Shown piece after piece: positions 15,001 to 18,000 of a stretch of DNA of 30,291 nt. The first letter of the stretch is position 1, and every line of letters starts with the position of its first letter. The stretch covers positions 1 through 30,291 of IMG/VR virus record IMGVR_UViG_2737471839_000025, one strand, 5' to 3'. A program made the position numbers. This DNA is from a virus. Its lineage: Duplodnaviria > Heunggongvirae > Uroviricota > Caudoviricetes.

Positions 15001-18000
15001 CTAAGTCCGGCCAAACTCCGCGACAAGTGGACCCAACTCGAAATCAACCGTAACAAGCAACAGGCTGGCGTGACAGCTGGAAAACCAAAACTCGACCTGA
15101 CAAACACTGACTGGATTTACGGGGTGGATTTATGAAAAACATCGCCGCACAGATGGTTAACTTTGACCGTGAGCAGATGCGTCGGATCACCAACAACATG
15201 CCGGAACAGTACGACGAAAAGCCGCAGGTACAACAGGTAGCGCAGATCATCAACGGTGTGTTCAGCCAGTTACTGGCAACTTTCCCGGCGAGTCTGGCTA
15301 ACCGGGACCAGAACGAACTGAATGAAATCCGCCGCCAGTGGGTTCTGGCTTTCCGGGAAAACGGGATCACCTCGATGGAACAGGTTAACGCAGGAATGCG
15401 CGTAGCCCGTCGGCAGAATCGACCATTTCTTCCATCACCCGGGCAGTTTGTTGCATGGTGCCGGGAAGAAGCATCCGTTATCGCCGGACTGCCAAACGTC
15501 AGCGAGCTGGTTGATATGGTTTACGAGTATTGCCGGAAGCGAGGCCTGTATCCGGATGCAGAGTCTTATCCGTGGAAATCGAACGCGCACTACTGGCTGG
15601 TTACCAACCTGTACCAGAACATGCGGGCCAATGCGCTGACTGACGCGGAATTACGACGCAAGGCTGCCGATGAACTGACCTGTATGACAGCGCGAATTAA
15701 CCGTGGTGAGACGATACCTGAACCAGTAAAACAACTTCCTGTCATGGGCGGCAGACCTCTAAATCGTGTTCAGGCGCTGGCGAAGATCGCAGAAATTAAA
15801 GCTAAGTTCGGACTGAAAGGAGCAAGTGTATGACGGGCAAAGAGGCAATTATTCATTACCTGGGGACGCATAATAGCTTCTGTGCGCCGGACGTTGCCGC
15901 GCTAACAGGCGCAACAGTAACCAGCATAAATCAGGCCGCGGCTAAAATGGCACGGGCAGGTCTTCTGGTTATCGAAGGTAAGGTCTGGCGAACGGTGTAT
16001 TACCGGTTTGCTACCAGGGAAGAACGGGAAGGAAAGATGAGCACGAACCTGATTTTTAAGGAGTGTCGCCAGAGTGCCGCGATGAAACGGGTATTGGCGG
16101 TATATGGAGTTAAAAGATGACCATCTACATCACTGAGCTAATAACAGGCCTGCTGGTAATCGCAGGCCTTTTTATTTGGGGGAGAGGGAAGTCATGAAAA
16201 AACTAACCTTTGAAATTCGATCTCCAGCACATCAGCAAAACGCTATTCACGCAGTACAGCAAATCCTTCCAGACCCAACCAAACCAATCGTAGTAACCAT
16301 TCAGGAGCGCAACCGCAGCTTAGACCAAAATCGGAAGCTTTGGGCTTGCCTTGGTGACGTTTCGCGTCAGGTTGAATGGCATGGTCGCCGGCTGGATGCA
16401 GAAAGCTGGAAGTGCGTTTTTACAGCAGCATTAAAGCAGCAGGACGTTGTTCCTAACCTTGCCGGGAATGGCTTTGTGGTAATAGGCCAGTCAACCAGCA
16501 GGATGCGCGTAAGCGAATTTGCGGAGCTATTAGAGCTTATACAGGCATTCGGTACAGAGCGTGGCGTTAAGTGGTCAGACGAAGCGCGACTAGCTCTCGA
16601 ATGGAAAGCGCGATGGGGAGATCGGGCTGCATGACTATCAAATCAAATACGCCAGCACACGATAAGGACTGCTGGCAAACGCCGCTTTGGCTTTTTGATG
16701 CACTGGATATTGAGTTTGGATTCTGGCTGGATTCGGCAGCGAGCGACAAAAATGCTCTGTGTGCTCACTGGCTAACTGAGGCCGACGACGCGCTCAATTC
16801 TGAGTGGGTAAGCCACGGTGCAATCTGGAATAACCCACCGTACAGCAATATCAGGCCGTGGGTGGAAAAAGCCGCTGAGCAGTGCATACAACAGCGACAG
16901 ACGGTAGTTATGCTTGTGCCAGAGGATATGTCAGTCGGATGGTTCAGCAAGGCTCTGGAGAGTGTCGACGAAGTTCGCATCATCACTGATGGACGGATTA
17001 ATTTTATCGAACCATCGACAGGGCTGGAGAAGAAGGGAAACAGCAAAGGCTCCATGCTGCTGATTTGGCGACCGTTCATCAGTCCTCGACGAATGTTTAC
17101 TACTGTATCCAAAGCGGCATTGATGGCGATCGGGCAGGGCGTCAGGAGGGCGGCATGAGGCGACAGCGAAGAAGCATCACCGACATCATCTGCGAAAACT
17201 GCAAATACCTTCCAACGAAACGCTCCAGAAATAAACGCAAGCCAATCCCAAAAGAATCTGACGTAAAAACCTTCAATTACACGGCTCACCTGTGGGATAT
17301 CCGGTGGCTAAGACATCGTGCGAGGAAAACAAGGTGATTGACGCGATGATTTATTCGGGGCTATATTCCTCAAACGCCAGCAAAATCTGGCGTCGGGATT
17401 GGCGTCCTGGATAGAGACCGCGACAGATACACGCCGCGAGCGTGTTTTTTATTGTCGTATGCACGCGCACATCTGAATTATGGTGGGCTGTGTGGGGGCG
17501 GAGAGATCCGCGCCGGTCGGTTTCCCGGTTACGCCAACCCTGCACAGTTCACCACCAGACGATTGGCGTCGTCGGTGGTGAGTTATTAAGAAACCACCAG
17601 AGGGCGTCATTATGACAACTCAAATTTCTGTTGAAACTCTCTCCCCGATCACCCATAACCAGATTCCTGTTATTACCACCGAACTTTTGGCGCAGCTTTA
17701 CGGCACTGAGCCGGTGCGTATTCGCCAGAATCATCATGAGAACAAAGTACGCTTCGTTGAAGGGAAACACTTTTTCAAAGTTGTTGGTAATGACCTTAAA
17801 GAATTGCGGGTAGCTTTAAACTACTCACAAAATTTGCGGGTTACTTTAAGTAACTCACAAAATTTGCAACCATCTTTAAGAGGGTTACAAATTTCCCCGA
17901 AAGCCCGCTCCCTCATCCTCTGGACAGAACGCGGAGCAGCACGCCACGCCAAAATGCTCGAAACCGATCAGGCGTGGGAAGTGTTCGAAAAATTGGAAGA

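Follow-up and report, generated by a model that had tools for sequence, protein, structure and literature searches.

The closest described relative of the gene reported here is M.EcoVT2Dam (BAA94133.1), the orphan methyltransferase of the Shiga toxin 2 (Stx2) prophage VT2-Sa (VT2-Sakai), whose known target is 5'-GATC-3' (PMC6602927, citing Radlinska & Bujnicki 2001). The enzyme is reported as cloned (2001) and GATC-specific in papers citing Radlinska & Bujnicki 2001, and the VT2-Sakai record annotates its gene, dam, as DNA N-6-adenine-methyltransferase 'similar to 933W L0094, HP1 Orf13 and T1 M.T1'. For phage T1, DNA from a dam- host was still sensitive to DpnI, and deletion of the T1 gene gave MboI-sensitive DNA (PMC10470545), which means that this family is able to methylate phage DNA fully in a dam- host. 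HP1/HP2 Dam is grouped with the T1 Dam type, and phage Dam enzymes of this kind are treated as convergent with host Dam (PMC5537653; PMC7556043). Here we analysed 30,291 nucleotides of viral DNA (IMG/VR record IMGVR_UViG_2737471839_000025, positions 1 to 30,291; the whole stretch is called the window below), which is a lambdoid prophage adjoining the host gene ybhC. Its dam gene (16631-17158, + strand) lies between ninB and ninE and encodes a protein with 100% amino acid identity to M.EcoVT2Dam. We consider it highly probable that this gene encodes a small phage-type orphan N6-adenine methyltransferase dependent on S-adenosylmethionine (AdoMet), of the T1 Dam/HP1 Dam/M.EcoVT2Dam kind, which acts on GATC, is made in the delayed-early phase and tops up the methylation of phage DNA.

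An intact dam gene in the place of ninC and ninD

The open reading frame (ORF) of dam starts with ATG at 16631, stops with TGA at 17156-17158 on the + strand and encodes 175 amino acids, with the motif IWNNPPYS at residues 65-72 (nucleotides 16823-16846). The sequence-only reading of this DNA had placed a 175-residue protein with this motif at 16631-17158, and the ORF, the motif and the coordinates were all correct. The features of the gene are as follows.

16631..17158, + strand: dam coding sequence, 175 amino acids plus stop, phage-type DNA N6-adenine methyltransferase (from the ORF, PF05869, TIGR01712 and VT2-Sakai identity)
16615..16620, + strand: Shine-Dalgarno-like GGGGAG, 10 nt 5' of the dam ATG and within the end of ninB (from the sequence)
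16721..16744, + strand: FWLDSAAS (residues 31-38), presumed equivalent of AdoMet-binding motif I (from the family alignment and the predicted strand E31-34)
16832..16843, + strand: catalytic motif IV, N68-P69-P70-Y71, within IWNNPPYS (from its position and its invariance in 34 homologues)

The ATG at 16631 is the supported start because of the lengths of the homologues, most of which have 172-185 residues when full-length and many exactly 175, and because of the GGGGAG located 10 nt upstream. The phage 434 record annotates a ribosome-binding site at the position equivalent to this Shine-Dalgarno-like sequence. A longer version from a GTG at 16571 (195 amino acids) was regarded as a mechanical ORF, and an antisense ORF at 16765-17289 (174 amino acids) was dismissed likewise, as the homologue lengths fit the dam ATG. 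One GATC site (16620-16623) falls in the stretch that separates the start codon from the Shine-Dalgarno sequence. At the upstream junction, the ninB stop TGA (16632-16634) overlaps the dam ATG (16631-16633), and at the downstream junction, the dam stop TGA (17156-17158) overlaps the ninE ATG (17155-17157), so both junctions read ATGA (16631-16634 and 17155-17158), just as had been claimed. These overlaps are not special to dam, because ATGA packing is a general feature of nin regions (PMC8022706).

Comparison with VT2-Sakai showed that the same 528-bp gene occupies the same ninB-dam-ninE slot there, between a NinB homologue and ninE and with overlapping stop and start codons. The two genes differ at 3 nucleotides, all synonymous, with no non-synonymous change, while 15 nucleotide differences from phage 434 dam change 2 amino acids. 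These mostly synonymous differences from VT2-Sakai and 434 indicate an intact gene under purifying selection. Phi24B dam is reported to be 100% identical to that of VT2-Sakai, and the Stx2-converting phage 1717 carries a near-identical dam gene. It could be argued that the prophage is decaying and the ORF no longer active, since a 1-bp insertion together with an in-frame stop has broken the nearby roi gene, but we regard this as extremely unlikely: the ORF is full-length, its product is 100% identical to a cloned active enzyme, the invariant residues are present, and the differences are overwhelmingly synonymous.

The gene order of lambda is ren-ninB-ninC-ninD-ninE, where ninC (annotated as PAPS-reductase-like) and ninD (57 amino acids), both unrelated to dam, fill the slot held by dam in the window. 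Over the block 15050-16634, the window has 95.8% nucleotide identity to lambda; this homology runs out at 16634, the final base of ninB, and restarts at 17162 in ninE. The mosaic joints thus coincide with the gene borders, and the dam cassette is an exact replacement for ninC and ninD, which bears out the earlier claim that the methyltransferase stands in place of these two genes. The window differs from VT2-Sakai in that O, P, ren and ninB are lambda-like, and homology to VT2-Sakai (98.3%) starts only at 16624, just 5' of dam. Phages 434, HK140, SfI and wild lambda-like phages (Lambda_ev series) share the ren-tR2-ninB-dam-ninE block at 97-98% nucleotide identity, whereas the rest of their genomes (immunity region, late genes) differs, which is ordinary lambdoid mosaicism.

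The gene is widely distributed. When 50,697 phage records were searched in translation, 201 had at least 99% identity to the dam product, VT2-Sakai with 100% among them. Phages 434, HK140 and SfI, several Stx phages and numerous wild lambda-like isolates carry the 1.3-kb ninB-dam-ninE block at 97-98% identity; annotated records with this block label the gene DNA (adenine) methyltransferase, and the layout is annotated also in Stx phages of the 933W/VT2 type. This orphan layout occurs in hundreds of phages. Of 5426 complete E. coli genomes, 1566 (approximately 29%) carry the 528-bp gene at an identity of at least 95%, with up to five copies in each, and its name from the Prokaryotic Genome Annotation Pipeline in the records listed is 'phage N-6-adenine-methyltransferase'. 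Homologues are spread across Enterobacterales prophages, and distant ones were found in Vibrio, Klebsiella, Lactococcus, Staphylococcus and Gordonia phages.

Family, predicted fold and probable target of the enzyme

By its own terms, the sequence-only reading would have been refuted if profile searches had shown no methyltransferase fold, but four collections assigned a methyltransferase. The dam product matched PF05869 "Dam" in Pfam with 218.4 bits (cutoff 28.1; 6e-65), covering profile positions 1-167 of 169 with residues 4-169, and it matched the NCBIfam equivalog TIGR01712, phage N-6-adenine-methyltransferase, with 265.9 bits (cutoff 97.05; 1e-79) over profile positions 1-165 of 165. It also matched phrog_111 'DNA methyltransferase' in PHROG (9e-88), and its best PADLOC models were those for 'orphan methyltransferase' (4e-19). 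Judged by the PF05869 and TIGR01712 scores over their cutoffs, the ORF is far beyond chance.

In the Pfam search, PF05869 was the only match at E ≤ 0.01, and PF02086 (host Dam/T4 Dam) was not matched by the dam product. Membership in the host Dam family (E. coli Dam/T4 Dam/DpnIIA) was therefore rejected on the lack of a PF02086 match and on the poor structural match to E. coli Dam described below (template modelling score, TM, 0.33). The term 'Dam-family' used in the sequence-only reading holds in the sense of phages T1, HP1 and VT2 and fails for the family of host Dam, of which the dam product is a functional analogue from outside. E. coli Dam and T4 Dam (PF02086, alpha class) resemble the window protein in their reported target GATC, their N6-adenine chemistry, the D/NPPY loop and the probable class I core, but the window protein is about 100 residues shorter and has no separate DNA-recognition domain. 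It is a small single-domain protein without a separate target-recognition domain, and its type ranges from about 165 to 240 amino acids. T1 Dam (YP_003925.1) belongs to PF05869 like the window protein, with 33% identity over 158 residues, and shares the DxWxTP, LDxAAS and NPPYS motifs and a C-terminal GNxKGS block, its NPPY aligning with N68-Y71 of the window protein. T1 Dam differs in having 237 amino acids, with an N-terminal extension of ~45 residues and an insertion of ~14 residues, and it comes from a lytic phage and is encoded outside a nin region.

Conservation was analysed by aligning 34 homologues, which are 59-86% identical to the window protein. Among them, N68, P69, P70, Y71 and S72 were invariant, and so were F31, L33, D34 and A36, a block that plausibly represents the AdoMet-binding motif. 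Together with NPPY, 46 further columns were invariant, and the window protein has kept all the invariant residues of the family.

An AlphaFold2 (AF2) model was built on this 34-sequence alignment and compared with the PDB by Foldseek. The model had a mean predicted local distance difference test score (pLDDT) of 79.5 and a predicted TM score (pTM) of 0.79, and in it strands alternate with helices and the C-terminus forms a beta-hairpin. The first Foldseek match was the human and zebrafish mRNA cap adenosine N6-methyltransferase PCIF1/CAPAM, a weak match (E 9e-4, TM 0.55-0.58) which ranked ahead of any bacterial DNA methyltransferase. Further weak matches were PglX, LlaGI, E. coli Dam, CamA, METTL4, METTL3-14, HsdM and Type III Mod, so that the neighbours were nearly all N6-adenine methyltransferases; E. 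coli Dam (4rtl_A) gave a weak match of the core (TM 0.33, E 0.065). The model is consistent with a minimal N6-adenine methyltransferase core of the class I AdoMet-dependent fold. A sequence search of the PDB with the dam product found no relative, and gave chance matches to SdiA and a DHH protein only (E 0.24-0.72); PF05869 seems to have no structurally solved member.

That the window enzyme would methylate N6 of the adenine in GATC is well supported, because of its identity to M.EcoVT2Dam and the literature on the family, including the T1 Dam experiments. We also considered that the enzyme might act on something other than GATC in DNA, with relaxed or no sequence specificity as for the adenine methyltransferase M.EcoGII, or on RNA. 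Such a target would agree with the lack of a discrete target-recognition domain within 175 residues, with PCIF1/CAPAM as the best structural neighbour, and with other prophage methyltransferases being non-specific (PMC6602927 Table 3; PMC7556043). But the identical protein is reported to be GATC-specific (PMC6602927), and the T1 member was shown to be a GATC DNA methyltransferase (PMC10470545). As a lead to an RNA substrate, the PCIF1/CAPAM match was rejected: at 14-15% identity and TM 0.55-0.58 it is weak and stems from the N6-adenine catalytic core that both proteins have, and for family members there is direct evidence of action on GATC in DNA. A non-GATC target is thus very improbable. A novel methylated motif would not be expected for a GATC enzyme, because its reported target is the same as that of host Dam. 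In Dam+ E. coli, methylation by M.EcoVT2Dam is redundant with that of the host and indistinguishable in methylomes (PMC6602927).

Prophage context and neighbouring genes

On the - strand, the window carries int, recombination genes of the exo/bet type, N, a Ser/Thr kinase gene and cI. The rightward operon has the order cro-cII-O-P-ren-ninB-dam-ninE, with cII, O and P recognised by Pfam, and ninE is followed by an antirepressor module, ybcO, rusA and then Q. The features that set the context of dam are listed below.

1-1284, - strand: ybhC, host gene (prophage boundary)
1419-2489, - strand: lambda-type integrase gene, int (context annotation)
9706..10089, - strand: N antiterminator gene (PF25694 N_peptide, 3e-15)
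12716-13423, - strand: cI (context annotation)
13443..13470, + strand: pR-like promoter, TTGCAA-16-CATAAT, upstream of cro (assigned as pR from its position)
13502-13729, + strand: cro (ORF)
13737-13744, + strand: boxA-like CGCTATTT, preceding the boxB-like hairpin (read from the sequence)
13768..13782, + strand: boxB-like hairpin TCGCT-GACAA-AGCGA, candidate nutR (read from the sequence)
15830-16120, + strand: ren (ORF and context)
16146..16177, + strand: tR2-like intrinsic terminator between ren and ninB, an 8-bp GC-rich stem (16146-16169) then the T-run TTTTATTT
16194..16634, + strand: ninB, orf recombination mediator (PF05772, 3e-54; phrog_72)
17155..17337, + strand: ninE (PF05322, 8e-44)
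19975-20463, + strand: Q (context annotation)

Located between ren/tR2 and Q, on the rightward strand and with ATGA packing, dam is a nin-region gene. The phage 434 record annotates a terminator at the same place as the tR2-like element. The earlier claim that dam is expressed from the early pR operon stands as far as its position in the pR operon is concerned, but needs to be qualified: because the tR2-like terminator sits between ren and ninB, we infer that dam expression is delayed-early and N-dependent.

No restriction-enzyme-like neighbour of dam was found in Pfam and PADLOC scans, which bears on whether dam could be the modification half of a restriction-modification system. A weak match to PADLOC Type II methyltransferase models (4e-07) would fit such a system. 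However, the best PADLOC models are orphan methyltransferases, the overlapping neighbours are NinB and NinE, the operon has no endonuclease partner and otherwise holds genes of ordinary nin-region function, YbcO and RusA downstream are nin-region junction nucleases, and the orphan layout recurs in phage after phage. With no cognate restriction endonuclease adjoining dam, membership in a restriction-modification system was rejected, and we give it almost no probability.

Directly after ninE there is a promoter-like TTGACG-18-TATATT (17338-17367, +), followed by a full-length Rfam match to the IsrK small RNA (sRNA; 74.7 bits, 17374-17450) with a terminator-like hairpin at its end (17429-17445), and by a match to the C4 antisense RNA (66.7 bits, 17476-17559). 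An intact ORF6N/P22_AR_C antirepressor-like gene of 244 amino acids follows (17612-18346, +). This small-RNA/antirepressor module (17338-18346) resembles the P1 c4-ant and Gifsy-1 isrK arrangements. In VT2-Sakai, the counterpart of 17612-18346 (L002 3982-4497) has a 5-bp deletion (at window ~17971), giving the truncated 171-residue 'H0107'. The next gene, roi (18415-19144, +), which combines a Rha-like N-terminus with an ANT/KilAC antirepressor, is a pseudogene in the window. Relative to VT2-Sakai roi (243 amino acids), it has a frameshifting 1-bp insertion at ~18569, and its in-frame stop lies where TFS*ALRLAAD replaces TFSEALRLAAD of VT2-Sakai, leaving fragments of 55 and 129 amino acids.

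On the other strand, a eukaryote-like Ser/Thr protein kinase gene (10745-11791, -; Pkinase, 2e-46) separates N from cI; its product gives strong hits to two PADLOC defence models, PD-T4-6 and mad6, and the gene is the stk of 933W-type prophages. Rfam matches on the same strand were the lambda cIII thermoregulator element (88.5 bits, 8540-8598) and sRNA-Xcc1 (69.3 bits, 3598-3686). The whole window is free of tRNA genes, and Q is not separated from the apparent lysis genes (21000-22247, identified from their position alone) by a gap large enough for stx. In contrast to VT2-Sakai, the prophage carries neither stx genes nor tRNAs 3' of Q, and it thus appears to be a non-Stx lambdoid prophage, despite an early region 97-99% identical to 933W/Stx phages.

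Proposed role of phage GATC methylation

The dam gene is a self-contained mosaic cassette, which we propose is reached by pR transcription along with ninB and ninE once N reads through tR2. Dam would then be made as a delayed-early product upon induction or infection, with its translation probably coupled to that of ninB and ninE via the ATGA overlaps, and would transfer methyl groups from AdoMet to N6 of the GATC adenine through its NPPY loop. From this we infer the most likely role: during rapid replication, host Dam leaves phage DNA under-methylated at GATC and phage Dam would top it up, which would make progeny genomes fully GATC-methylated regardless of the host Dam level. Full methylation would protect the DNA from GATC-cutting restriction sensitive to N6-methyladenine in the next host, and would alter the response of MutH, SeqA and Dam-sensitive promoters to phage DNA. 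The identical Phi24B protein was found by a screen with lysogen-specific antiserum, and quantitative PCR showed that its expression changed significantly on induction (PMC3342100).

The main job of the enzyme could instead be regulatory, with the GATC methylation state tuning lysis-lysogeny, prophage stability or Dam-sensitive promoters; the biochemistry would be the same, and the two roles do not exclude each other. Host Dam is reported, as cited in PMC3342100, to be essential for stable lysogeny of the Stx phage 933W (Murphy et al. 2008), and the Phi24B Dam was detected in lysogen cultures, where the authors suggested that it supplements host Dam (PMC3342100). The window is also poor in GATC: it has 79 sites, whereas base composition predicts 118 and a Markov estimate 141, and those that remain could be selected. 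But dam lies behind the cI-repressed pR and tR2, so little expression would be expected in a stable lysogen, and spontaneously induced cells are always present in lysogen cultures. Moreover, no Dam-regulated promoter was identified in this analysis, and lambda manages without dam. We therefore hold a mainly regulatory job to be possible but rather unlikely.

Several points weigh against the topping-up of phage-DNA methylation by a GATC-specific Dam. In a Dam+ E. coli host, its activity would be the redundant one noted above (PMC6602927), and the biological role of phage Dam is described as 'still not well understood' (PMC7556043). The 175-residue enzyme would have to read GATC without a separate target-recognition domain. 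The similarity to solved structures is low (best TM 0.55-0.58, E about 1e-3) and the PDB holds no relative by sequence, so that the fold is supported but unproven. The roi pseudogene is a sign of some prophage decay, so dam expression in this element is not guaranteed.

Because the enzyme has no target-recognition domain, yet is constantly coupled by ATGA to the recombination mediator NinB/Orf in lambdoid phages, Dam may act together with the recombination/replication machinery, methylating nascent or recombining DNA and not serving as a simple anti-restriction device. GATC might then be read by an unusual mechanism (dimerisation, loop-only recognition) absent from solved structures. This we consider improbable; if it were true, Dam might for instance shield the replication intermediates of the phage from MutH, SeqA or a host defence that senses methylation.

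We thus prefer the orphan GATC methyltransferase that tops up phage-DNA methylation. The gene is real but ordinary: it is well known, was annotated as early as the VT2-Sakai and 933W genomes, and is now named routinely. What a phage gains from its own GATC methyltransferase in a host that has Dam, and how such a minimal enzyme recognises its site, are questions of the whole family, neither specific to this locus nor new. For this prophage, the practical value of dam is as a marker, which identifies the nin region of the window as the 434/VT2 type and not the lambda type.

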